Origin: Alphaproteobacteria bacterium
GTDB taxonomy: Bacteria > Pseudomonadota > Alphaproteobacteria > SP197
Assembly (NCBI GenBank): GCA_964291265.2
Contig: OZ219747.1
Coordinates: 3,616,001 to 3,680,000, forward strand
Length of the DNA: 64,000 nucleotides
Direction: 5' to 3'
How positions within the stretch are numbered: the first letter of the stretch is position 1; each line of letters starts with the position of its first letter. The notes beneath the pieces were generated by a model. The model had not been told where the DNA came from, did no database searches, and saw nothing but the letters and a program-made list of their open reading frames with translations. This document shows, one piece after another, positions 39,744-54,343 of the stretch. Both the position numbers and the translations under genes were made by a program.

Positions 39744-40006
39744 CAGGACCATTCTTTTGTCAGTCCTGTGGATTGTTGATGTGACAGGGACCGGCATGGT
39801 TGAGGCGCCCGGGTTCACTGTGGGCTGGTTTCAGTGGGCACTGCTGGTGCATCAGGGCTCACCAGGCACGTTTTTTCGAGTGTGCGAACAGAGCTGTCCT
39901 GTTGCGCCGTCAGGCGGCGCGTTCCCGGCTTGTGGCGCGGGGTCAGGAGCGAAGGTTCATCCGCCGGGCGGGATGAGGATAGCGTCGAGTGCGTCCTGGG
40001 CGCGAG

Positions 40007-42374
40007 CTTTCAACCAGACACTGTTGAATCCATCTTTTTCAGCATATCGAGTTCCTGCAGTTTCCGCATATTTCGGTGATGTTCGACGAAGGTGAGGAGG
40101 ATTTCGTATCCCTGCCAGAGTTTCTCAGTCCCCGGCAGGGGTTGACGTTTTCTGGGAATGAAGCCCGCCAGGCGTGCGACGTCGACGGCGAAGGCTGCGA
40201 TGGTCGGTTCGGGATCGGGAGGTCCACGCGGCGTGCGCTGTCGGCTGACCTTATAGATGTTCAGGACCGTGATCTCGTCGCGGTGGACGATGTGGCTTGC
40301 CGGGGTGTCTGGTGCCGAGCGTGCGAGGCGCTCGACGGTCATGACGCGGCATGCGGTGATGGCGTCGAAGGCCAGACACTTCCTCAGATCGTCGGCCTGG
40401 TTGAGGCGCCGGTCCTTGATCCGGGTGCCGACCTTCAGGGCCTTGAAGTACTCTTCGATCCACCATCGCCTCTCGTAGAAGGAGACGGTCTTGAGGGCAT
40501 CGTCTGCGGTGACGTCGCCTTCGGTGGTGAGCAGCATCCAGTCGAGAGGATCGCGGCCTGGCGGTGGGGCGGGTTCCGTGACCCGCACGGCCATCATGGA
40601 GAGCGGCGGCGTTGCCTGAGGCTTCTTGTCCGGCGGAGCCAGGTCGACCCTTGCCGCACGGACTTCGAGGCGTACGCCCTTGCGCTCCTTGCGACGACGC
40701 GGCCCTCCGCAGGCTGCGATGTCGATCTGCTTCGTTGCGATGCACGGCTCGTCCGCCATGTAGTCCCAAAGGTCCCGGCAGGCGCCCGTTGCGGTGACCA
40801 CGCGGCGCCGTGTCGAGCGCCTGACGCGCACCAGCAGACCGGCCTCGTGCTCCGTGCTCCGGGCCAGCAGGTCCCAGATGTCGCCTTCACGGTCACAGAT
40901 CACCAACACCCTTGTCGAAGGACAGGCAGCGGCCAGTTCCACGGCCTTGTCGTACCCGTCGAGCCAGCGCCGGCTCTCCTTGTCGTCTGGCTCGTCCTTC
41001 TTCTGATCCGGCTTGAGACGGAAGTCGGCGTCGAGATGGAACAGGCCGAGGGATGAGCCGCCTTCGCTGAAGGCAACCCCGGCATGGGCCGCCATGCCAA
41101 GGGCGCCCGAGCCGCCGCCGATGTCAACAAGACCCTTGGTCGCCTCCAAGCCGTTGTCATTCAAGAACGTCGTGTCCTGGATGGCAAGAATCAGGCGCTG
41201 CGAACGGCAGCGTTCCACCATCGCTTCCTGGTGCCCCTCAAGGATATGCTCCATCGTCACCCTCGGATTCGACAACAGGCGGTAGGCCGCCTTCTGCTCC
41301 GCCTCGCCGGGGAAGATCACCGGCAGGATCGCGCCGGGACGATCGTTCCACGCCCGGCCCATGGTGACAAGGCGCTCGCGGATGCGCACGTCACTGTGGC
41401 TGCTGCGGGCGTACTCCCTCATCGCCCAGTCGGTCCTGTCATCACCGACAAGGGGCGCCGCCTGGCCCATGACACGCTCAGGCTCCCGGCACAGCACGGC
41501 GCGCCAGTCAGGCGTCAGGGGCTTCATCCATACGGACCGCTGCACGCCCGGGCCGGTGGCCCCGGGAGGTCGACCCGAGGTCATCTCCTCACAGCGCTCC
41601 CAGCCCGCCGCCCGGTAGCTCACGCCGCTGTGCTCGGGACCCACATACGTGTACGCCAGAACCGGCATCACCCCGTACTTCTCGTGCCAGTCCGTAGCCA
41701 GACGCCGGCAGGCACAGGCCAGGGCATGGGAGGCCAACTCCTTCACATCCACCGATGGAAGAATCAGGAAGCGATCATTGTTGACGATCTCGCCGAGGTG
41801 GGCGACACGGGCTCCCTGGGACCAGCCGATGAAGTCGTCGCGCGCCTTCTGGTGCCAACTCGCCGCACCAAACACCAGGCCGCCGAGGCGACCGTGGCGC
41901 GACGAGGTGATCCAGTAGCTCACCCGGGCTCCGGGTGCGCACGCCTCGCCTTCGGGATGCCAGGTCGCCATCATCGAACGGGCCAGGCGCTTGTCCTCGC
42001 CCTCGCCCACAGGCTCCAAGGTGACCTCTCCAAGGTCCTCCAGAGAACAGGCGAGGAGCTTGTCGGGATAGTCCCGCTCAAGGGTGTCGGCGCCGGTGCC
42101 GAAGGCATCAGGCCTTGGTGCAGGAAGGGCGATGTCGAGCGACGCAGCAAGGTCAGGCAGGGCCGCACGCGCCGAGGCAAGACACAGCTCGCCCTTCGCG
42201 TTGCGCCACTCCTCGCGCTCGCACAATCCCCGCGCCAGAGACGAACGTGTGCTGCCCTCGGCAGCCGACGCCGCCTTCAGCCAGTCAACCGTCGTCGCAG
42301 ATGTCGAAAGCCGATCCTCATGGGCCACTATGTAAGGCCTCATGAACATCGAGTCAAGCCTGTCCCGTTGAAAG
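40007..42374 (-). mobile_element. IS4-family insertion sequence, 2368 bp
   Basis: IRs CTTTCAACCAGACA and TGTCCCGTTGAAAG; 9-bp DR GGGCGCGAG at 39998-40006 and 42375-42383. Confidence 0.92.
40010..42349 (-). CDS. IS4/Tn5-like transposase with N-terminal DUF4338 domain, 779 aa
   Basis: RDDFIGWS, VNNDRFLILP, YRAAGW; IQDTT, ICDREGD, YERRWWIEEYFKALK. Confidence 0.9.
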   Translation of the reverse strand: MFMRPYIVAHEDRLSTSATTVDWLKAASAAEGSTRSSLARGLCEREEWRNAKGELCLASARAALPDLAASLDIALPAPRPDAFGTGADTLERDYPDKLLACSLEDLGEVTLEPVGEGEDKRLARSMMATWHPEGEACAPGARVSYWITSSRHGRLGGLVFGAASWHQKARDDFIGWSQGARVAHLGEIVNNDRFLILPSVDVKELASHALACACRRLATDWHEKYGVMPVLAYTYVGPEHSGVSYRAAGWERCEEMTSGRPPGATGPGVQRSVWMKPLTPDWRAVLCREPERVMGQAAPLVGDDRTDWAMREYARSSHSDVRIRERLVTMGRAWNDRPGAILPVIFPGEAEQKAAYRLLSNPRVTMEHILEGHQEAMVERCRSQRLILAIQDTTFLNDNGLEATKGLVDIGGGSGALGMAAHAGVAFSEGGSSLGLFHLDADFRLKPDQKKDEPDDKESRRWLDGYDKAVELAAACPSTRVLVICDREGDIWDLLARSTEHEAGLLVRVRRSTRRRVVTATGACRDLWDYMADEPCIATKQIDIAACGGPRRRKERKGVRLEVRAARVDLAPPDKKPQATPPLSMMAVRVTEPAPPPGRDPLDWMLLTTEGDVTADDALKTVSFYERRWWIEEYFKALKVGTRIKDRRLNQADDLRKCLAFDAITACRVMTVERLARSAPDTPASHIVHRDEITVLNIYKVSRQRTPRGPPDPEPTIAAFAVDVARLAGFIPRKRQPLPGTEKLWQGYEILLTFVEHHRNMRKLQELDMLKKMDSTVSG

Positions 42375-43398
42375 GGGCGCGAGCGGCGTCGTGCCGGTTG
42401 GCTTCGGGCATATAGTCGAAATGTCCGCCGCAGCGCACGATGGCGATGGCGGCGTTTGTCAGGCAGGAGAGGTTGCGTGGCAGATGGCGCACATGGACCC
42501 TGCAGCGGTCCTCGTCGTAGGTGAAGTCGCGTACGTAGTGGAGTCGATTTTCGATGACCCAGTGGTCGCGCACGAGGGCCAGAAGCATCTCGGGTCCGTG
42601 CAGCGAGTCTAGCTGCTGTACTTGCGGGTGAAAGTCCCGCCGGCGCAATTGTCAGTTTGGCGCCGTAGCATATCCCACTGGTTCAGGGGCGACCTTGGAC
42701 CAGCGAGCTGGGACGTAGAAAGCCGTTGTGGGCTGGCTGGGACACAGTGCCCAGCCGGTTCGGTCAGCCAGGGCGGCGAGCAAACCGGAGGGCCGTAGCG
42801 AAAGCGAACGATTGGATGAAGCCACGAAATGATGCTCCCACACGAAGCTGATTTGTGGGGTGGTCGGGAATGCCAAGGGCGTGGATCCGGCCCGATGGCC
42901 AGAGTCGATGCGGAAGAACTGATGAGCACGCATCGGGTTCCCCGGGGTACAGACGGCGGCAATCCGGGACAGTACAGCAGTGAAAGGCCGGAAGGTGAGG
43001 AGGACAGACAGGATGAAGTGACCCTTGAATGTCAAGGACCGCGTCTATAACCAGGATTGGGAAAGGACGCGGAGTCCTCCTGACTGGCGGATGAGGTCGA
43101 GTAAGCGTTGACGGGCGGGACAACACAACCCGTCCCGAGCGAGGACCTCAGGGCTCAGGTGGCCTATGCGGCAGGTCAAGTCGGTACTCAGAGACCGGCA
43201 CCGACCGACAGACTGCAAGGTCGAAGGACGGAGCAAACGCAAGGAGATGCCGTGGGTATGGATGGGTCAGCCTTGACCATGGCGTGTCCGGCGGAAGGCT
43301 CCGCACCGAACTCCAAGTGGGTGCCTGATGCTTGAAGCCGTACCCGGGAAAACCGGACGTACGGAATTTTAGGGGGGCTGCTGGAAACGTGGTCTATG

Positions 43399-45348
43399 CC
43401 GAAGTTCCGGACGATTTCAGCGGCAGAGTCACGATAACCGGTTGATTGTGTTGGCAAAATAGCGCGATGATGGCGCGAGAATGTTCCCATGTAACGGCGA
43501 AGTTTTCCCTTGACACGGTGGGCTTACGCCCCCATATACGTTGCCATGTACGTAGACATCGTCCCCAACCGTAACTCACCCCCCGCCGTCCTCCTGCGAG
43601 AGGGATGGCGCGAGAACGGCAAGGTCAAGAAGCGCACCATCGCCAATCTCTCCTCCTGGCCCATGGAAAAGGTCGAGACCCTGCGGCGGTTCTTGAAGAA
43701 CGAACCCCTCGTCGGTCGTGACGACGCCTTCGACATCGTCCGCTCCCTACCCCATGGGCATGTCGCCGCGGTGCTGGGAACCCTGAAGAAGCTGGGACTG
43801 GACAGGTTGATCGACCCGAAGCCCTCGCCTGAGCGCGATCAGGTCCTGGCCATGATCGTGGCACGCATCCTCGAGCCCGCCTCGAAGCTGGCCACGGCCA
43901 GGGGGCTGGCCGAGGCCACGGCGGTCAGCACCCTGGGCGAGGTCCTCGATGCGGAGATGGACGAGGACGCCCTCTACGGCGCCATGGACTGGCTCCTGGA
44001 GCGTCAGGAGAGGATCGAGCGGTCCCTGGCGAAGCGGCGCCTCGAAGAGGGCTGCCTGGTGCTCTATGACCTGACCTCGGTATGGATGGAGGGGAGAGCG
44101 TGTCCCCTGGCAAGGAGGGGTCATTCCCGGGATGGCAAGAAGGGCAAGCTGCAGATCGAGTTCGGCCTTCTGTGCGATCGGGACGGCTGTCCAGTGTCGG
44201 TGGAAGTGTTCCCCGGCAACACGGCGGACCCCGGGACGGTGGCATCACAGATCACCACGCTGCAGGAGCGCTTCTCCCTGGCGAAGGTGGTGCTGGTGGG
44301 AGACCGGGGGATGCTGACCGAGGCGCGCATACGCGAGGAGGTGAAGCCCGCAGGCCTGGACTGGATCAGCGCCTTGAGGGGACCGGCCATCCGCGCCCTT
44401 GTGGAGGCCGGCGACGTCGAGATGTCGCTCTTCGACGAGAGGGACCTGGTGGAGATCACCAGCGATGCGTATCCCGGCGAACGCCTCATGGTCTGCCGCA
44501 ACCCCCTGCTGGCCGAGGACCGGGCCCGCAAGCGCCAGGAGCTGCTCGAGGCCACCGAGGCCCTGCTTGAACCGATCGCCGCAGCGACACGGCGCGACAA
44601 GCGCCGTCTCAAGGGTGCCGACAAGATCGGGGAGCGGGTCGGCAAGGTCATCGGTAAATACAAGATGGCGAAGCACTTCACGTGGTCCATCGACGACGAC
44701 GGTGTCTTCACCTATGGGCGCGATGAGGTTGCCATCGCCGCCGAGGCCAGGCTCGACGGCCTCTACGTGATCCGCACCAGCCTGCCGCAGAGCGAGCTCG
44801 ACGGTCCCGGCACGGTGCGCGCCTACAAGCGGTTGAGTTCGGTGGAACGGGCCTTCCGCAGCCTGAAGACCGTGGATCTGAAGGTCCGTCCCGTCTACCA
44901 CCGCACCGAACCCCGGGTCCGCGCCCATGTCTTCCTGTGCATGCTCGCCTACTACGTGGAATGGCACATGCGCCAGAAACTGAAGCCCATGCTGTTCGAC
45001 GACGAGGATGCCGAAGGCGCCGAGGCCCGGCGGCCGTCCGTCGTGGCGCCGGCAGAAGTCTCGGCGAGCGCCCGGGCCAAGGCGGCAACCAAGAGGACGC
45101 CCAGGGGTGATCCGGTGCACAGTTTCCGCACCCTCCTCGATGATCTCGCGACCATCACCCGCAACACCGTGGCGCCCCGCCTTGCGGGCGCCAAACCCTT
45201 CCAGGTCACCACGCGGCCCACGCCGCTCCAGAAAAAGGCCCTGGACTACCTCGGCATACGCCTGCAGCGTTCCCAGTAGCGACACACCCGATTTTTTCAA
45301 ACGTCAATACATTCATAACGATACGTCTGATCGGTTCTGGAACTTCGG
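43399..45348 (+). mobile_element. IS1634-family element, copy B, 1950 bp
   Basis: Near-identical to copy A; 6-bp DR TCTATG at 43393-43398 and 45349-45354. Confidence 0.93.
43546..45279 (+). CDS. IS1634-family transposase
   Basis: Differs from copy A at only a few residues (E/D, A/V, R/K, G/R). Confidence 0.93.
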   Translation: MYVDIVPNRNSPPAVLLREGWRENGKVKKRTIANLSSWPMEKVETLRRFLKNEPLVGRDDAFDIVRSLPHGHVAAVLGTLKKLGLDRLIDPKPSPERDQVLAMIVARILEPASKLATARGLAEATAVSTLGEVLDAEMDEDALYGAMDWLLERQERIERSLAKRRLEEGCLVLYDLTSVWMEGRACPLARRGHSRDGKKGKLQIEFGLLCDRDGCPVSVEVFPGNTADPGTVASQITTLQERFSLAKVVLVGDRGMLTEARIREEVKPAGLDWISALRGPAIRALVEAGDVEMSLFDERDLVEITSDAYPGERLMVCRNPLLAEDRARKRQELLEATEALLEPIAAATRRDKRRLKGADKIGERVGKVIGKYKMAKHFTWSIDDDGVFTYGRDEVAIAAEARLDGLYVIRTSLPQSELDGPGTVRAYKRLSSVERAFRSLKTVDLKVRPVYHRTEPRVRAHVFLCMLAYYVEWHMRQKLKPMLFDDEDAEGAEARRPSVVAPAEVSASARAKAATKRTPRGDPVHSFRTLLDDLATITRNTVAPRLAGAKPFQVTTRPTPLQKKALDYLGIRLQRSQ

Positions 45349-46436
45349 TCTATGGGAGAACTGCGACCCCGCCCGCAATCGAAAGAGCGGTGACGGACAA
45401 AGCCTCTGCCTACGGATGCGCGCGCCAGTGGCCTACCCGACGGCGCGTTCGGGAGCGAGCGAGGTGAGGCACCAGGTGGTCTCGACACTGCGTTCTTTGG
45501 TCTTGCAGATCTCGCGTTCGCGCTCGATGCGGATGGCTTGGTGGCGACCGTGGAGAGCGGCGTAGCCGTCCCACTCGGCGCCGGAGATGTCGACCACGGC
45601 ACAGCGGCGGCGCTCGATGCGTCCGTGCCCCTTGTCGAGTGTCTCGAACGAAGCCGCGCCCTTGAAATCGATGGCCTTGAGATCGTCGAGCATGGTCTCC
45701 TGGTTATCCTTGATCGCCGTGATGACATAGTCGGCGCGGCGCTCGAGAAGCCGTTGCGCGGTCTCGTGCTGAGCGTGCATCGCGTCCAGGGTGACGATGC
45801 GGCCCGTGACGTCGATGCTGCTGGCGAGGTCCCGCACGGCGGGGATCTCGTTGCTCTTCGCGTCGACCTCGACCTGGCCGAGGACCATGCCGGTTCCGTG
45901 CTCGACCGCTGCGACCATCATCCGCCGCCCGTTTTTGGTCTGCCTGGAGGCGCCGCGGATGTCCTTGCCGTCCATGGCGAGCGGTGTGTCTGCACCGGCC
46001 TGCTGGGCCGTCCACAGGCCGATGGCGTGGTCCAGGGTCTCGGGCGGCAGGTTGGCGAGGATGGTGTAAGCACAAGATCAGTCCGTAACGACACCAACCG
46101 GCCAACGGCAACCAAGCGTCTTCTCTCACTTCCCGGCCCTTCTACAACAGGTTACGGGACAGTGCAAGAGAAATTTCGATCGCGCGAGAACAACGCGATG
46201 TCGTTCCGATGTCGTCGAACTGTTGCACTCGGGGAAGCAGCACGGCAACGACAGAGCTCTTGCCAGATCCCTCACGGCCGTCCAGGATGGCACAACAGCG
46301 ACACATCAGCGCGCCACAAGAACAACACAAGAAAGGGCCTCGATATCGCCATGCAGGATGAGAACAGGAGAATGTCACTCGTGATAGACCCTCGCACGGC
46401 GCATGTGTTTCCCCAGTCAACGCCGGTACCGGCGCC

Positions 46437-46775
46437 ATGACCGACCGCCGCCAGCACGCCGTCATGGCGACGGACGCCGAGTGGGAACGCATCACCCGGG
46501 CGGCCCGGGCGGCCGGCATGGAACTCTCCCGCTTCATCGTGCAGCGCACCCTGATGCCGGATGCCCTGCCGATGGAGGTGCTGCGGCGGGCCGTGCGGGA
46601 GGTGCTCGTCATGGCCCGCCTGGAAGAGCGGCGCCTGTGCGAGGCCGGCGCCGGGGAGGCCTGGGAGGAGGCCGGCGAGGCGGTCGACGCCTGGCTGGAG
46701 AGCGAGGGCGTCCTGGCGCGCCTGACCGATCCGGGAGCGGCCAACCGCTGGAAGGCGGCGGGAGACGGGGGATGA
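46437..46775 (+). CDS. Ribbon-helix-helix (MobC/NikA-like) protein 1
   Basis: HAVMATDAEWERITRAARAAGMELSRFIVQR. Confidence 0.65.
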   Translation: MTDRRQHAVMATDAEWERITRAARAAGMELSRFIVQRTLMPDALPMEVLRRAVREVLVMARLEERRLCEAGAGEAWEEAGEAVDAWLESEGVLARLTDPGAANRWKAAGDGG

Positions 46776-47065
46776 CGCGCCAGCTGAAGCGGCAGCGTTC
46801 CGTTCACTGTCCGCCCGAGGAACAGGAGATGATCCGCGGGAAGGCGAAGGCCGCCGACAAGACGGTGTCGGGCTACCTGCTCGACCTTGCCCGCAAGGAC
46901 GATCCGCAGATCCATCCCCTGGTGCTGTCGCCGGAGGATCAGCGTGAGTTCCTCGAGGGCACGAGGACCCTGCAGGAGGTGGCAAGCGCCCTGCGCCGGG
47001 AGCTTCCCGGCACGGAGGGTCTGACCCTCCTTGCGGCGGTGGCGGTGATGAGTCGATGGCGATGA
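46772..47065 (+). CDS. Ribbon-helix-helix (MobC/NikA-like) protein 2
   Basis: RSVHCPPEEQEMIRGKAKAADKTVSGYLLDLA; ATGA overlap. Confidence 0.65.
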   Translation: MTRQLKRQRSVHCPPEEQEMIRGKAKAADKTVSGYLLDLARKDDPQIHPLVLSPEDQREFLEGTRTLQEVASALRRELPGTEGLTLLAAVAVMSRWR

Positions 47066-47538
47066 GGCCGCGGCGGCGTCGCCGGAAGAAGCCGCCGTCG
47101 AAACACCTGACGGTCTCGGCGACGGACGACGAGTGGGAGATGGTGAGGTCGCAAGCGGCAGGCCGCGGGCTCTCGATCGCCCGCTATCTCGTGGGCCTGG
47201 CGGCCCGGGACGGGGCCGAGGGCGACAAGGGACCGCCGCTGGTGCTGGCCGGGGTTCAGCAGAGGGAGCTCCTGGAGCTCCACCGGGAGATCCTCTCGCT
47301 GCTGCAGGGCGATGAGGACACATCGTCGCTGATGGCCGACATCCAGGCGCGGGTCGCGGTGATGTTCAACCTGTGGGCGAAGGACATGATCGCCCGCGGC
47401 CGGGAAGATGATCTCCGGGCCGAGCTGGCCTCGATCCTCGGCGAGGAGCAGGCGGCCGCCGTCATGGCCTCCGTCAGGAGAACGACGACGGAGCGCCCGC
47501 GGGCCGCGGACACGGTCCAGCCGGATCTCTTTTCCTGA
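47062..47538 (+). CDS. Ribbon-helix-helix (MobC/NikA-like) protein 3
   Basis: LTVSATDDEWEMVRSQAAGRGLSIARYLVGLA; ATGA overlap. Confidence 0.65.
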   Translation: MRPRRRRRKKPPSKHLTVSATDDEWEMVRSQAAGRGLSIARYLVGLAARDGAEGDKGPPLVLAGVQQRELLELHREILSLLQGDEDTSSLMADIQARVAVMFNLWAKDMIARGREDDLRAELASILGEEQAAAVMASVRRTTTERPRAADTVQPDLFS

Positions 47539-47575
47539 ACGGCAGGGGATCATCGGGGGAGCATGAACCTCTTGC

Positions 47576-50500
47576 CTACATCGACAGGCCGCGGGACCGT
47601 CCACGCCTGCGGGCCTCGATCTCGCGGAGCGTCTCGGCCATGCGCCTCTCCCGCGCCGTCTCGTCATCCCAGGGGGCGCGTACGCATCCGCGCGTGAAGA
47701 GGGAGCGCATATCCTGGCGGATCGTCGAACCGGCTGCAGGCGCTCCCTGCATTCCCCAGGAGCGGACCACGCGGAGCGTCACCCCGTCTCCCACCACGTC
47801 GTTGACGCCGGGCTCGACGGCCTCGACGATCGCCTCGACCTGCGCGGTGTCGCCCTCGATTGGGGGCTGGACCGGGCCGGCATGCCGCACCATGGTCCAG
47901 CGTATCCTGTCGTCCGGAAGGACCCTCTCCTCGCAGGCGAAGGGGAAGGCGTCGTTGCGGACGGGATACTGCCGGTCGCGTTCCCGCTGGCGCAGCGCCT
48001 CGTCGGGCCACAGGAGGCGTCGGCAGGTGACGTTGCCGGCAAGGGGGCGGAGCGTCTCGGCGTGGAGACTGCGGGTCTCTGTGCCGCCGACGGGACGAAT
48101 GCGCAGGCGATCGATGACGTCGGGGCCGGTGACGTGGCTGACCATCTCGACAACCGCGTCGTGGCGGCCCTCTGCGTCGATCCAGCTGAGCCGGTCGCCG
48201 CGGAGCAGGGGCTCGGTCCCGTCCCAGCGGACACTGCGGGAGACGTCGAACGGCGCCTCCCGCAGCTGCCGCATGGCGGTGCGGACCTCGAGGAGGTGGC
48301 GGGTCCGGCCTGCCTCCTCGCGCACCGCGTCGTCCTGGGCCAGGCGTTCCGGGAGTGCCGCCACGATGTAGGCGAGGCGCCGGGGCGAAGCGCCCGCGGC
48401 GCGGATGTGGGCCTCCTGGTTCAGCGACCCTGCCTCCACGGCCTCCAGCAGCATCCGGGCACGGCGGCGCCAGGCGTCGGACAGCGCTGCGCTTCCCTGG
48501 AGGCCGGGTTGGAGAGCCAGGGCCTCCGCGACGAGCTCATGAACCCGCTGGCGTTCGCCGTCCCAGCCATCGAGCGTCTCGCGCCACGCGCCGACGGTGG
48601 TCCGGTCCTCCGCGGTGAGGCGCGGATCGTCCCGGAGCTGCCGCAGCACCTCGCGCAGGGGCGCCATGTGGGGCGAATCGAGGGGATGGCGATGATGGTC
48701 CCGCACCTCCCCATTGATGGCGTCTGCCCGGCGCACGAGAGCCCGCAGGCTGTCGCCGAGGAGCATGGCGTCGATGCGCTCGGCCTCGGTCTTGACGACA
48801 TCCCCGGCGCCCGCCATGTCGCGGGCCGGCAGGCCGTCGGCCTTCCACGCGCCGGGAAGCGCGCGACCTTCGGCCAGGAGCGCCGCGGCGTCGCGGCGCC
48901 AAAGGGGATCGCCCGGTTCCGCCGCCTCGCCCAGGCGGCCGGCGCGGCGGCGCCAGTTCGCGAGAACATCGAGGGCGGCGTCCGTCGCCATCCAGGAGGG
49001 CGCCGAGGCAAGACGCTGCCGGAAGGCATCGGGGGATGTTCCGAGGGCGCGAAGCTGCGCGGTGCGCTCGCCTTCGGGGATGGCGTCCATCGCCGCACCG
49101 GCTTCCTCTGCCGCCGCCGGGGCCGCGGCGCGCCAGGCCGCACGGTCGTCGCCTGAGCCGCCGAACGTGGGCCGGTTCGTCTCGGCCTCCGCGAGGCGGG
49201 CGAGGGCTTTGGCGAGACGGGCGCGGTCACGGCGCCAGCGCCTGTCGTCATCGAGCCGGCGGGTGAACGCGCGCACAGTTCCATCCGCCGGCGCGCCGTC
49301 GGCCACCGCCCCGGGGACCTCCTCGAGAAGGCCGGGCCAGTCAGCGAGGTCGCATGGGAGCCGCCCGGCGGCCTCGGCGCGGTCCTCGATCTCCTTCACC
49401 CGCTGCAGAAGTGCGGCGCGGTCCAGGGCTCTGAAGGTCGTCTCGATGGTTGCCGCCGCCGCAACGAGGTCGCGGCGGGCGTCGGCGAGGGCATCGAGGT
49501 GGCGGGCCTTCAGCGACCTGTCGGCCAACATCGCCCGGGCAGCCGTCAGCATTGCCGCCGCCTCGGTGCGCCAGGCCCGGGCATCGGGATGGTCCGCATC
49601 GGGATGGTCCGCCGCCGCAGGCGCCGGCCCCGTCTTCGCCAGGACCCGGGCCCTGGCGACGGTGGCCTCGGTCTCGCGGCGTTCCGCCTTCCACCTGCCG
49701 TCGGCGTCCCGCCAGTCGGCCATCAGGTCGCGCGTTGCCTGCGGCGTGCCCTCGTGTTCGGCGAGATCCTCCAGGGCCGCCAGGAGCCGGGGGTAGTCCG
49801 CCGCATCGAGGGGATGCACGCCGCCTTCCTCATGGGCCCGGTTGACGGACCGGGTGAAGGCGGCGAACGCCTGGCATGCGGCCGTCAACCGGGCTGCCTC
49901 GAGCTGCCTGATGACGCTGTCGACGGCGTCCCGGGCGCCCGCCATGTCGTCCGTGCGAGAGGGATGGGCGGCCCATTCCTCCACAAGCCTCCTGCCCTCC
50001 TCGATCAGGGCGTAAGCCCGTTCGACATCCTCCTGCGCGATGGTCGGACCCTCGCCGCCCTCGCGCAGCACCTCGGCGGCCCGCCCCGACCAGTCGTCGA
50101 GGCCGGCGAGGGCCGCGTCGGTGGCGCGCCACAGGGGCACGGCGCCGACCAGGGAAGCGAAGTCCTGTGCCGTCATGCCGCAGGCTGCGAGGTGGGCTCT
50201 GCGCTCGTGGTCGGCGAGGGCGACCACGGTCTCGAGGGCGCCGTCCAGGGCTTCGGCCCCGTTGCGCCACGCTCGGCGATCCGGCGCGTCGCCGCGGATG
50301 TCCGCGTAGCGGGGCCTTGAGCGTTCGAGGTCCCTCAGCAGGCCGACGGTCTCCGCCACGCGGCGGCGGTCGCGGCGCCAGCGCCCGTCGTCTGCCAGCC
50401 AGCGTTCGAGATGACGGCCCACCGGATCGCCGGGTGCGGCGGCATCGACGGCACGGCGGATCTCGCCCAGCGTGCCGAACCATTCCGCGAGATCGAGGGG

Positions 50501-53500
50501 CAGCCGGTCCTCGAGGCGGGCCCGGCCAGAGATCCCGCAGACCCGCCACAGCAGCGTGGCGCGGTCAAGCGCCTCCAGGCTCTCGACGACCTCCCGGCCC
50601 GCCGTCACGATCCCGTCGCGCTCCTCCAGCATGGCGGCGATGTACGGACCATGAGGACCGTCCGTGTCAAGGAGCGAACGCATGTGCCGCAGGTGAGCCT
50701 CCGCGTCGCGCCGCCACCGCGTGACATCGGCGTCCCCGGGATCGACCCCGCCCGCGCCATCGAGCGGCACGTGGTCTGCGAACCATGCCGCCAGCATGCC
50801 GGCTCTCTGACGCGCCGACCTGAAGTCGTCGACGAGAGCGGTCTCCGCGGCATGGCGCGCCTGCCAGGCGTCCACCGCACGGCGTTCCTCCGCCGTCAGC
50901 CCCGTGGACCGCGCCAGGGCCGCGCCGCGGCGGGAGATGTCCGCATGGTCCGTCAGGAGGGAGGCCGGCACGGCCTTCTCCCGCGACCGTTCGACCAAGG
51001 CCCGCCAGTCGCGGGCAAAGCGCGCGGCATCGTCCTTCAGCCGCACCTTCTCCACACCGGCAAGCGCGACCCCGAGGCGCCGACGGTCACCCTCCGGGAG
51101 TGCCGGCGCCTCCTCTCCGGCGAGCCGCCGCCGGGCGCTGTCGACAAGGGCCGTTCCCGCATCGCGCCACGTCCGCCAGGCCGGGCCGTCTCCTGCAGGG
51201 TGGCCTGTGGACCGGGCCGCCCATGCCAGTTCCGGCCAGCGCCGCGGCTGGTCCTGCAGGCCGGAGATGAGCTCCCGCACCTGGCGCTCCGCAGCACGGG
51301 ACGCTTCATGGGCTCCAAGGCGCTCGTCGACGAAGGCGCGCATCTCGGCCGGCAGGTCCTCGACCGCCGCGAAGGCGGCAAGGCGCGCCATCACCCCGGC
51401 ATAGGCCGGAACCGACGAGGGAGGCGAACCCGCCGCCTCCCGTTCCACCTCTTCCCAGGCAGCGACGACGGCGGCCCACGCCTCGGGATCGACGATCGGG
51501 CCGTCGAGATCCTCGCCCAGGGCCTCGAGCGCGGCGTCGGGCACGTCGGGCGAGGTCTCGAGACACTCGATCAGCGCCTCGCGGTCGTCCGTCAACAGGG
51601 TGAACCCCTGCGAGGCACGGCTCACCTCGACGTAGAACATCTCCCGGTTCGCCATGTGTCCGGCATCGAGGACGGCGATGACCTTCTTCGCCGTCTTCCC
51701 CTGGGCGCCGTGGACCGTGGAACTCCAGGCATGGTCGAGATGGCGCAGGTGGGGATCGCTGCGGGCCAGGGAGTACTCCGTGCCGTCGTCCGCCAGCAGC
51801 CGCACCCGCTCGGGCCCGATCGACAGCACGCGGGCTTCCTCGCCGTTGACCAGGGCCGGCGTGCGCCGCCGGGCCTTGCGGTTGCGCGTCCAGCGCACCC
51901 GGTCGCCGGCCCGGATCTCGATCTCCACGGTCTCGTGCACCCCGAGGTTGCGGGCGGCGTTGCCCGAGGGCCGGAAACGCCGTTCCCGGCCGTCGGCATG
52001 GTCGAGGACGACCCAGCCGTCGCCGACCCCGGTGATGGTGCAGACATCGTCGGCACGGCAACCATAGGCGTCGCGGTGGAAGACCACCGTGTCCCCCGGT
52101 TCGTAGTTGGCGAGAACCGAGGCCTCGATGCGGGTGTAGCGCCGGTCGACGAGGCGCCGGATGGTGAGCGTCCCTCCCGTCAGCACGCCTTCCTGCGCCA
52201 GGCCCTCGCGGATGGCCGCGTTGATCTCCCGGCGCACGGCATGGGTCGGGGCGAGGACGGCGCAGGCCTCCCGGTCCTCCGCCCCGAGGGCGAGCCACGC
52301 CCGGGCCGCTTCTGCCCCGAGATCCTCCACCCGGTGTTCCGTCACCCGGTTGGCGAGCCGCGTCATGGCCTCGCCGGCTTCGCCCTCGCGGGCCCGCACC
52401 ACCGCCTCCTTCAGGTCCGCATCCTCCTGGCGCAGCACCTCGTCCATCACCGCCGTCGCCATGCCGCGCTTCTGCATGAGGGCAAAGGGCTGGCCGGCGT
52501 CCACCGCCTTCAGCTGCGCCGTGTCGCCGACGAGCACCACGCGAGCGATACCAAGGGTTCCGGCCAGGGCGAGCAGCCTCTCCATCGCCACCGTGCCGAT
52601 CATCGAGGCCTCGTCCACCACCAGCACCCCGCCATCCATGTCCTCGCGGGCCCGCTCCAGGCGGTCGGGGTCCGAGAGATCGCCGTAGCGCACCAGGAAC
52701 CACTGAAGGGTGCGGGTCGAGACCCCGGCTCCCTTCTCCAGCACCCGCGCCGCGGCGGCCGAGGGAGCAAGGGCAATGAGCGGGCGCCCCTCCACGAGGC
52801 CCGCCACCTCCTTCAGCATCGTCGTCTTGCCGCTGCCGGCCCGACCCTGCACGCCCACCACCACATCGCCTGACCCCAGGACGTGACGCACCGCGTTCGC
52901 CTGCCCGGCGGTCAGCCTCGTCGCCGCAAGGCGGGCCGTCACCGTCTCTTCCGGGACCAGGGCGACGGCCAACGTCCGGCCCTGCCTCACCGCCTCCAGG
53001 ATGCGCCGTTCCGCCTTGACCGCCCGGTCGGTGACGAAGGAACGGTCCGAGCCCCGCAGGACCGTCTCCAGCAACTCCCCTTCCGCGACGAGGCGCTCGA
53101 TCGCCGCGTCGATCTCCTCCAGCCGGTAGCGGCCCGGCGCATGGCCCAGGACCAGTGCCCGGATGTCGCGAGCCGGGATCACCGTGCGTCTCTCCTCGAC
53201 GTGAGCCACCGCCCGCGCCACCGCCTCGAGGACGCCCGTCTCGGGCTCGGCGATGCGTTCCGCCGGAGCCGCGGGGCGGAACCGGCGCCGCCGCACCACG
53301 GTCTCCACCACCGGTTCGAGGTGCGGCGCCGCAGGCGACCGCTGCCGCCGCCGGCGTTCGTTCTTCGTCAGCCCCGCTTCCGGGTCCACCGGCAGCGCCA
53401 TCTCCCGGCCCGTCTCCGGTTCGACCGGCCTCGGCGGCCTGAGCGCCGCCTCGTCGCGCACAAGGCCCAGGGCGCGCGCCCGGGCGCGCCACTGTGGCAC

Positions 53501-54343
53501 AAGCTCGGCAAGGCCCGCCTCGACCTTGCGACGGCGCGTGTGGAGCGTCGCCTTCTGCGTCGCCTCACGCGTCGCCGGAAGCCCGTGCTTCTCGAGGTAG
53601 GCAAGGATCTCCCGGCGGCGCCCGGAGAAGGCGTCCAGGAACTCCCCGTCGTAGCCCGCCAGCTCGAAGCCCGGAACCGGGCCGATCATCCGCGGCGTCA
53701 CCGCGAAACCCTGGGCCACCAGGCGCGACGCCAGTTCGTTGCGGTAGTGCGCCCCGATCAGCTTCTCGCTGCGCCGCAAGGACGTCGGCTCGATGCTCTT
53801 CCAGGCGCCGTCGGACGAGCGCGTCATGTTCGCCAGAACGCAGTGCGTGTGAAGCTGGGGATCGAGATCACGGTTTGTGAGATGGCGAAAGCCCGCCACC
53901 ACCATGCCGTCCGCCTTCACCCGCGGCCGGCGCTTCGTCGCCGGATCCCAGCCCCGGGTCTGCAAGAGGTCCCGCTCGATCCAGTCCAGGGTCGCCCGCA
54001 CCGCCTCGTCGTGCGCCCGGATGACACGCACGTCCCCCATCACCAGCGCCTCCAGAGACACCGACTTCGGCGCCGAGAACGTGATGTCCCAGCCCGGACG
54101 GTGCCGGCGCTCTCCCTCGACGATCCTCCCCAGACGGATGTCCGTCTTCGGCACCTTGCCCTGCAGCACCGACTCGAAGCGCGACGGCACAACGTGGCCC
54201 CTCAGCCCAAGGTCGCCCGCCGCACGGCCATGCCAGAAGCTCGCCTTGCGATGCTCGGGATCGTTGCGGGCGTAGTACCCATCCTGCTCGTAGTACGAAA
54301 CCGCGGTCGCCGAGGACGCAAGCTCGTGAACCGTCGCCACCAT
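47576..54343 (-). CDS. MOBF (TrwC/TraI-like) relaxase-helicase with long repetitive C-terminal extension, 2255 aa
   Basis: SYYEQDGYY, WDITFSAPKSVS, FRHLTNRDLDPQLHTH, QGRAGSGKTT, VVDEASM, LVGDTAQL, TVHGAQGKT; basic tail RRRGRSRGLSM. Confidence 0.93.
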   Translation of the reverse strand: MVATVHELASSATAVSYYEQDGYYARNDPEHRKASFWHGRAAGDLGLRGHVVPSRFESVLQGKVPKTDIRLGRIVEGERRHRPGWDITFSAPKSVSLEALVMGDVRVIRAHDEAVRATLDWIERDLLQTRGWDPATKRRPRVKADGMVVAGFRHLTNRDLDPQLHTHCVLANMTRSSDGAWKSIEPTSLRRSEKLIGAHYRNELASRLVAQGFAVTPRMIGPVPGFELAGYDGEFLDAFSGRRREILAYLEKHGLPATREATQKATLHTRRRKVEAGLAELVPQWRARARALGLVRDEAALRPPRPVEPETGREMALPVDPEAGLTKNERRRRQRSPAAPHLEPVVETVVRRRRFRPAAPAERIAEPETGVLEAVARAVAHVEERRTVIPARDIRALVLGHAPGRYRLEEIDAAIERLVAEGELLETVLRGSDRSFVTDRAVKAERRILEAVRQGRTLAVALVPEETVTARLAATRLTAGQANAVRHVLGSGDVVVGVQGRAGSGKTTMLKEVAGLVEGRPLIALAPSAAAARVLEKGAGVSTRTLQWFLVRYGDLSDPDRLERAREDMDGGVLVVDEASMIGTVAMERLLALAGTLGIARVVLVGDTAQLKAVDAGQPFALMQKRGMATAVMDEVLRQEDADLKEAVVRAREGEAGEAMTRLANRVTEHRVEDLGAEAARAWLALGAEDREACAVLAPTHAVRREINAAIREGLAQEGVLTGGTLTIRRLVDRRYTRIEASVLANYEPGDTVVFHRDAYGCRADDVCTITGVGDGWVVLDHADGRERRFRPSGNAARNLGVHETVEIEIRAGDRVRWTRNRKARRRTPALVNGEEARVLSIGPERVRLLADDGTEYSLARSDPHLRHLDHAWSSTVHGAQGKTAKKVIAVLDAGHMANREMFYVEVSRASQGFTLLTDDREALIECLETSPDVPDAALEALGEDLDGPIVDPEAWAAVVAAWEEVEREAAGSPPSSVPAYAGVMARLAAFAAVEDLPAEMRAFVDERLGAHEASRAAERQVRELISGLQDQPRRWPELAWAARSTGHPAGDGPAWRTWRDAGTALVDSARRRLAGEEAPALPEGDRRRLGVALAGVEKVRLKDDAARFARDWRALVERSREKAVPASLLTDHADISRRGAALARSTGLTAEERRAVDAWQARHAAETALVDDFRSARQRAGMLAAWFADHVPLDGAGGVDPGDADVTRWRRDAEAHLRHMRSLLDTDGPHGPYIAAMLEERDGIVTAGREVVESLEALDRATLLWRVCGISGRARLEDRLPLDLAEWFGTLGEIRRAVDAAAPGDPVGRHLERWLADDGRWRRDRRRVAETVGLLRDLERSRPRYADIRGDAPDRRAWRNGAEALDGALETVVALADHERRAHLAACGMTAQDFASLVGAVPLWRATDAALAGLDDWSGRAAEVLREGGEGPTIAQEDVERAYALIEEGRRLVEEWAAHPSRTDDMAGARDAVDSVIRQLEAARLTAACQAFAAFTRSVNRAHEEGGVHPLDAADYPRLLAALEDLAEHEGTPQATRDLMADWRDADGRWKAERRETEATVARARVLAKTGPAPAAADHPDADHPDARAWRTEAAAMLTAARAMLADRSLKARHLDALADARRDLVAAAATIETTFRALDRAALLQRVKEIEDRAEAAGRLPCDLADWPGLLEEVPGAVADGAPADGTVRAFTRRLDDDRRWRRDRARLAKALARLAEAETNRPTFGGSGDDRAAWRAAAPAAAEEAGAAMDAIPEGERTAQLRALGTSPDAFRQRLASAPSWMATDAALDVLANWRRRAGRLGEAAEPGDPLWRRDAAALLAEGRALPGAWKADGLPARDMAGAGDVVKTEAERIDAMLLGDSLRALVRRADAINGEVRDHHRHPLDSPHMAPLREVLRQLRDDPRLTAEDRTTVGAWRETLDGWDGERQRVHELVAEALALQPGLQGSAALSDAWRRRARMLLEAVEAGSLNQEAHIRAAGASPRRLAYIVAALPERLAQDDAVREEAGRTRHLLEVRTAMRQLREAPFDVSRSVRWDGTEPLLRGDRLSWIDAEGRHDAVVEMVSHVTGPDVIDRLRIRPVGGTETRSLHAETLRPLAGNVTCRRLLWPDEALRQRERDRQYPVRNDAFPFACEERVLPDDRIRWTMVRHAGPVQPPIEGDTAQVEAIVEAVEPGVNDVVGDGVTLRVVRSWGMQGAPAAGSTIRQDMRSLFTRGCVRAPWDDETARERRMAETLREIEARRRGRSRGLSM

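Follow-up and report, generated by a model that had tools for sequence, protein, structure and literature searches.

The stretch of DNA analysed here (the window) comprises 64,000 nucleotides of the Alphaproteobacteria bacterium assembly GCA_964291265.2, contig OZ219747.1 (G000:C2:3616001-3680000, G000 being this genome, which is rated 100% complete). It contains a group II intron without an open reading frame (ORF), 888 nt long once an insertion sequence (IS) of the IS1634 family lying inside it is set aside, and inserted antisense in a truncated ISAs1 transposase gene. The main biology is located outside the window, where all of the other full copies in the genome are occupied by a sibling intron whose target has become domain VI of this intron type.

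A sibling intron targets domain VI of the outer introns

Besides the window copy, six more full copies of the intron were found in the genome, and 6/6 are twintrons with the sibling intron at the same junction. The inner sibling (888 nt, 93.5% identical) sits after the 7th base of the domain VI 5' strand, and its exon-binding sites EBS1, EBS2 and EBS3 (GCCCCC, GAAATT and G, respectively) match the domain V-VI junction of the outer type. The six inner copies were 100% identical, implying very recent activity, and the six outer copies of the EBS type seen in the window differed by 3-8 nt. A seventh outer copy, 95% identical, carries the same inner intron and has a third EBS set, complementary to the exon beside it. 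At one ISAs1 site two twintrons lie head to tail, giving four introns there.

The exact inner target occurs at 7 sites in the genome, 6 of them filled, and only that of the window is unfilled; the inner sibling was found nowhere in the genome outside those 6 sites. The unfilled target, with its intron-binding sites (IBS), is the following.

43365-43379, plus strand: unfilled inner-intron target; IBS2 43365-43370, IBS1 43373-43378, insertion point between 43378 and 43379, IBS3 T43379.

The corresponding site in domain VI of the inner intron itself carries a G-to-A change at -4, which keeps the helix (G-U becomes A-U) and mismatches the inner EBS1. This A-variant site was filled in 0/6 cases. 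A contig of run X4 that passes through an inner/outer junction mixes alleles, is probably a collapsed repeat, and was not accepted as evidence of self-nesting.

The outer copies were probably dispersed already when the inner type spread through them, homing into each one independently. The alternative that the twintron spread as a unit after a single inner invasion, by composite retrohoming or DNA duplication, or that gene conversion homogenised it, appears improbable. The basal stem of domain VI could still form with the inner intron looped out, and some alleles of the inner type recur in several outer copies, which suggests conversion. However, the outer copies differ where the inner copies show no difference at all, the outer copy with the third EBS set carries the same inner intron, and the flanks of the outer copies are unrelated and without duplications.

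A partial copy was also observed at G000:C2:3544651-3544718. It consists of the last 68 nt of the family sequence and lies in the same IS-end target as copy E; such a 5' truncation is as expected from incomplete reverse transcription.

The intron in the window

The window intron and its domains lie as follows.

42598-43398, plus strand: 5' part of the group II intron (801 nt), spanning domains I-V and the beginning of domain VI; sister copies 95-99.6% identical.
42622-42803, plus strand: RF02003 match in domain I (covariance model).
43146-43332, plus strand: putative domain IV, about 190 nt, without ORF, borders approximate.
43334-43370, plus strand: domain V, from its fold and from pairing in relatives; RF00029 negative.
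43372-43384, plus strand: 5' strand of the domain VI basal stem, from pairing in relatives.
45355-45441, plus strand: 3' part of the intron (87 nt), distal domain VI and AC end; 3' strand of the stem at 45425-45438, branch A45435.

An earlier note, made from the sequence of the window, had proposed a hidden ORF-less intron at 42598-45441, and all of its coordinate claims were borne out. Deletion of this segment rejoins the ISAs1 frame on the minus strand (...SLAPERA/GPEMLL...) without a target duplication, and the ends are, as it had read them, GTGCAG at the 5' side and AC at the 3' side. The 5' end is thus GUGCAG compared to the GUGYG consensus, the family as a whole keeping GT(G/A)CAGCG, and the 3' AC fits AY. 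In a covariance search with Rfam models, RF02003 (group-II-D1D4-4) matched 42622-42803 with 66.6 bits (E 2.2e-12, gathering score 49). RF00029, the domain V-VI model, gave no match in the window even at E<=5, and the intact sister copies were likewise all without a match (scores obtained for 150 of 255 candidates).

The domain V with an AGC triad that the note had described was recovered as a hairpin at 43334-43370, with AGC at 43336-43338 and a fold z of -3.1. It has a 5-nt GAAAA loop, a 2-nt AC bulge and an extra AA bulge, and 97% of its cells were paired in 13 relatives; RF00029 misses it because of the extra AA bulge. The basal stem of domain VI and the bulged A45435, which lies 7 nt from the intron's 3' end, were likewise found, with 95.8% of basal-helix cells paired in 13 relatives. 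Covariation in domains V-VI was modest, the 3 pairs with two-sided changes not being above shuffles; the covariation score was higher than in all 500 shuffles.

The 888-nt intron contains no reverse transcriptase (RT) ORF, in agreement with the note. Domain IV is without ORF and showed no RT similarity below E 0.06, the matches at that level being on the opposite strand; its mean identity within the family was 67%, compared to 79-98% for the other domains. No sigma-70-like promoter was found at 40000-46500. The intron was not covered by the contigs of RNA run X21. In run X1 the intron contigs were far deeper than the unique flanks, a difference from which no expression claim is drawn because the X1 library type is unrecorded. 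By its structure and boundaries, and by its lack of an ORF, the element in the window is shown to be an ORF-less group II intron.

Exon recognition and insertion targets

The following pairing elements were located.

42584-42589, plus strand: IBS2 AGCATC, pairing with EBS2; column covariation.
42592-42597, plus strand: IBS1 GGGTCC, pairing with EBS1 with one G-U; C42591 forms a seventh pair.
42831-42836, plus strand: EBS2 GATGCT; top covarying columns.
42883-42888, plus strand: EBS1 GGATCC in a 9-nt loop; 94/96 positions paired, 16 variants.
42950, plus strand: EBS3 C, pairing with the first base of the 3' exon.

An unbiased column scan was made on 18 representative introns, with every alignment column compared to every exon position. 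Positions 42883-42887 were the top columns for exon -1 to -5 and 42888 tied for the top at -6, and 42831-42836 were the top columns for exon -9 to -14, so that both the EBS1 and the EBS2 pairing proposed in the note were recovered by the scan. EBS3 was newly located at C42950, the top column for exon +1 (13/16 paired, of which 12 are Watson-Crick). Covariation of EBS with the flanking IBS was found across copies: 94/96 EBS1 positions pair over 16 distinct EBS1 sequences, compared to a mean of 51.4 and a maximum of 73 paired in 20,000 shuffles. This tally was obtained after correction of four 5' ends and one loop register (94/108 in the first pass), with no junction dropped, and over all 44 junctions the EBS1 pairing amounted to 261/264. 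The EBS/IBS pairings are real and of the IIB type, with EBS1, EBS2 and EBS3 all present.

The claim that the intron targets a transposase gene was weakened, since only 2/5 loci of the window's EBS type are in ISAs1 and only 2/10 ISAs1 sites are filled. The other 8/10 target sites are empty and all have exactly the rejoined junction; the joined, intron-free ISAs1 form is also present in contigs from runs X1 and X2. Elsewhere, intron copies of this EBS type occupy two unique sites with a perfect EBS1 match, where ISAs1 needs a G-U pair, and one copy (copy D, at C2:3117383) is inserted in sense orientation in a gene for a fibronectin-III-domain protein, five homologues of which are empty. The targets are thus several, and ISAs1 is one of them. 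An element specialised for ISAs1 transposase genes and dispersing with them, as the note had emphasised, is accordingly very improbable: 3/6 copies of the window's EBS type (2 loci) do share the same ISAs1 site, but most ISAs1 sites are empty, 3/5 loci are elsewhere with two of them matching EBS1 better, and the relatives use 16 different EBS1 sequences.

Candidate reverse transcriptases

A PF00078 search of the genome returned 18 places, of which 16 are full-length copies of one RT and 2 are broken. The 16-copy RT has 443 aa and only RVT_1 and GIIM domains, and its host RNA matches RF02005, not RF02003; all 14 above-cut-off RF02003 matches in the genome belong to the ORF-less family. The proposal that the intron is mobilised in trans by an RT encoded elsewhere stood as to the need for an RT in trans, and fell short in that no intact helper RT of the same RNA class was found in the genome. 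Among the genomes of the genus, a group II RT match (E<=1e-45) was found in 7/7 holding the family and in 2/16 without it. Mobilisation by an RT of another class is likely from these comparisons, and in this genome the 16-copy RT is probably the helper. The class letters E-like for the RT introns of this genome and D- or F-like for the others are our assumption from motifs; the RF02005/RF02003 split and a tree without named references were tested.

A cognate RT of the RF02003 type, with long domain VI, that was recently lost, lies on an unassembled or visiting replicon, or is supplied by a co-resident cell, is the less likely explanation. RT-bearing introns of the RF02003 type exist in two family-bearing genomes (L108 in G102 and L106 in G104), a broken RT at C2:1340273 is 48% identical to an RT of that type, and ORF-less bacterial introns are nearly always found near related introns bearing an intron-encoded protein (IEP) (PMC4424553). 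On the other side, the genome is rated complete with every above-cut-off RF02003 match ORF-less, the broken RT stops short at 206 aa and its host RNA is a different one, L106 and L108 share with the window intron only short stretches of up to 29 nt (blastn), and the identity of the six inner copies points to activity in the very recent past.

ORF-deleted siblings of the RF02005-type RT intron were seen at 16 places in G000:C2 (e.g. 376771, 766933 and 858100), many in one IS-like element. They are a second non-autonomous intron family, with its cognate helper present, and it is these copies, of the other intron class, that account for the 16 weak RF00029 matches in the genome. RF02005-type introns have also been entered by group II introns of further types, which lie nested at G000:C2:1339360-1340570, 1375420-1376270 and 2248623, one with a truncated RT.

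Replication-strand bias

Replication landmarks were dnaA at 647.6 kb, a skew minimum at 722 kb and a maximum at 3.25-3.29 Mb. All twintron loci (5/5) are on the lagging-strand template, and the window copy is on the leading-strand template. Among the ISAs1 sites only 1/10 lies on the lagging template, namely the one with the tandem twintron; the 8 empty sites are all on the opposite one. The same bias was present in the controls, with 14/16 RT introns and 14/16 of their ORF-deleted siblings. A preference for the lagging-strand template is described for RmInt1, which is without endonuclease (PMC8914252).

The family in other genomes and a second origin of the targeting

With an exact domain V pattern, 54 distinct matches were obtained; they are spread over 21 further genomes, which belong to Alphaproteobacteria and Candidatus Binatia except for one that is unclassified. 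In 35/54 a 5' end lies 703-772 nt upstream of domain V, and RT motifs upstream of domain V were found in 0/54 matches in the 21 genomes. With a looser pattern there were at least 120 metagenome matches; among those listed, 59 have 800 nt or more of upstream sequence, and 0/59 carry an RT in domain IV. The sole metagenome RT match ends approximately 800 nt upstream and belongs to a neighbouring intron. A distant plasmid search returned only short Streptomyces domain V matches, which were dropped.

In genome G103, too, an inner intron occupies this position in domain VI; of the 5 G103 loci inspected, no other is a twintron of this kind. Each inner intron groups with its own outer intron (93.6% identity in G103; support 100/99 and 100/100), indicating that domain VI targeting arose at least twice. 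That self-immunity evolved twice was rejected, because the G103 inner EBS1 pairs with its own site.

Introns or RT genes of other classes are the hosts of several relatives. At L045:1-400 (minus strand) a family member lies in domain I of a sibling, so that twintrons within the family also form at a second site. In L017 (G002) the initial G-run of domain VI is expanded to 11 G, by slippage or sequencing error.

Host element and neighbourhood of the window copy

The 1956 nt inside the intron consist of the IS1634 element and one copy of its 6-bp target duplication. A family transposase (NF033559, 340 bits), terminal inverted repeats and a short target duplication were found; the element has many copies in the genome, and sister introns carry TCTATG singly. 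The host ISAs1 copy is truncated at its 5' end, and an adjacent element has taken the place of its 3' end.

42340-42597, minus strand: ISAs1 transposase frame, 3' part, the 5' exon of the antisense intron; NF033564 profile positions 265-313.
43393-43398, plus strand: IS1634 target duplication, left copy TCTATG, single in sister copies.
43399-45348, plus strand: IS1634-family IS in the distal arm of domain VI; transposase 43546-45279 (NF033559).
45349-45354, plus strand: IS1634 target duplication, right copy, from end comparison.
45442-46067, minus strand: ISAs1 transposase frame, upstream part, 5'-truncated; NF033564 profile positions 80-261; G45442 (plus strand) is IBS3.

Since some relatives are without the distal domain VI arm, the IS1634 insertion need not destroy the branch helix. 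A diverged partial copy at G000:C2:1767898-1767668 (minus strand) also has an IS1634-type end inside domain VI.

On one side of the locus, a 779-aa ORF at 40010-42349 (minus strand), with a DruA-like domain fused to Tn5-like transposase domains, ends abutting the ISAs1 3' end, and the same arrangement with ISAs1 is found again at C2:4.252 Mb. On the other side, a NikA-like mobilisation gene and a 2255-aa TrwC relaxase-helicase at 46437-54343 adjoin the locus and suggest an integrated conjugative region.

Proposed mechanism

Taken from sequence comparison, the explanation that we favour, with reasonable though not high confidence, is that of a non-autonomous ORF-less intron which would insert where DNA complements EBS1, EBS2 and EBS3, most likely by retrohoming at replication forks with a borrowed RT without endonuclease from another intron class, the 16-copy RT being the foremost candidate. 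In the twintrons, the inner intron would usually have to splice first and thereby rebuild the branch helix of its host. Nesting would end at two levels through the structure-neutral G-to-A mismatch to the inner EBS1, and would be limited as well by the inner EBS3, a G that cannot form a pair with an intron's initial G. The outer EBS3 is a C and is able to pair with this initial G once an intron has inserted, and this would account for the two twintrons lying head to tail in one ISAs1 site; the same mechanism has been proposed for EcKTE56.groEL tandems (PMC12584367). The window copy may have been spared because its target is on the leading-strand template, because IS1634 lies 20 nt downstream of the target, or both.

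Several observations weigh against parts of this explanation. When partial copies are counted, the strand bias of the family is only 9/13, and the window copy itself is on the disfavoured strand, an orientation that is confounded with the IS1634 insertion (n=1). As for the borrowed RT, IEPs are often specific for their own intron (TeI4h, PMC2882425), and among the matches listed for the 21 family genomes, an RT that is nearly full-length, free of stops and has 60% or more identity to that of G000 was found in only 10/21, the rest having pieces only (6), distant RTs of 41-50% (3) or no match at 1e-45 (2). The helper class is not fixed, since the G000-type RT is intact in only those 10 genomes. 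The kin genomes are not independent, and both search patterns were modelled on the ORF-less intron, so that a relative bearing an RT would escape them if its domain V differed. Finally, the G103 inner EBS1 (CCCTCC) pairs perfectly with its own A-containing domain VI, so that the G-to-A change may have another cause and self-avoidance is supported in G000 only.

We put forward more tentatively, as a possibility rather than an expectation, that the long-domain-VI lineage as a whole could be RT-less across phyla, in the manner of short interspersed nuclear elements (SINE-like), borrowing RTs of other classes and spawning branch-helix parasites with a stop to self-nesting. Such a lineage would be under-counted because its domain V escapes RF00029.

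Significance and comparison with known systems

ORF-less bacterial group II introns are described as rare and almost always accompanied by a related IEP donor unless domain V is atypical (PMC4424553), and a later intron census depends on RF00029 (PMC8919778). An ORF-less family with an RF00029-negative domain V fits the loophole left by these two accounts. The genome provides a ready test set: its introns come in three EBS variants, their targets occur filled and unfilled on either replication strand, only one type of RT is intact, and one twintron interrupts a protein gene, making cross-class RT use, the splicing order of the domain VI twintron and self-avoidance directly testable. If so retargetable in trans, a compact ribozyme of this kind would be of interest for bacterial gene targeting.

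No paper was found that describes a domain VI sibling twintron in bacteria, in a search with subscription journals outside its scope; Simon et al. 2008 and Dai and Zimmerly 2003 could describe related ORF-less introns. Group IIF ribozymes (PMC3753933) have in common with the window intron a 5-nt domain V loop and a long, structured domain VI. L106 and L108 match the same Rfam domain I model (RF02003) and reach the RF00029 gathering score, which the window intron does not. In contrast to the IIF ribozymes and to L106 and L108, the window intron is without IEP and has the extra AA bulge in domain V. The likeness to IIF thus concerns two RNA traits, the domain V loop and domain VI, and a class assignment would need an IEP. 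RmInt1 has the same preference for the lagging template and differs in encoding its own IEP (PMC8914252).

Among nested introns, those of Methanosarcina acetivorans likewise show repeated site-specific homing into other group II introns, according to the summary in PMC4424553. There up to five introns are nested by homing into related intron ORFs, whereas here there are two levels and the catalytic 3' end is the target. The Trichodesmium twintron (PMC4649490) is also bacterial and is spliced sequentially, as we would expect here, but its inner intron is in domain I and both partners have IEP ORFs.

The closest known system is TeI3/TeI4 of Thermosynechococcus elongatus (PMC2882425). Both systems have ORF-less introns diversified by EBS change, identical inner copies within diverged outer copies, and an inner EBS matching the outer intron; mobilisation in trans, which is probable here, and targets in other mobile elements are further points of likeness. 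In T. elongatus, the insertion point of the inner intron is in the IEP ORF of the outer one, between its first and second ATG, and the helper is a close cognate CL/IIB1 IEP. In the present genome, the inner intron lands 7 nt into domain VI, both twintron partners are ORF-less, and no intact RT of the same class was found.

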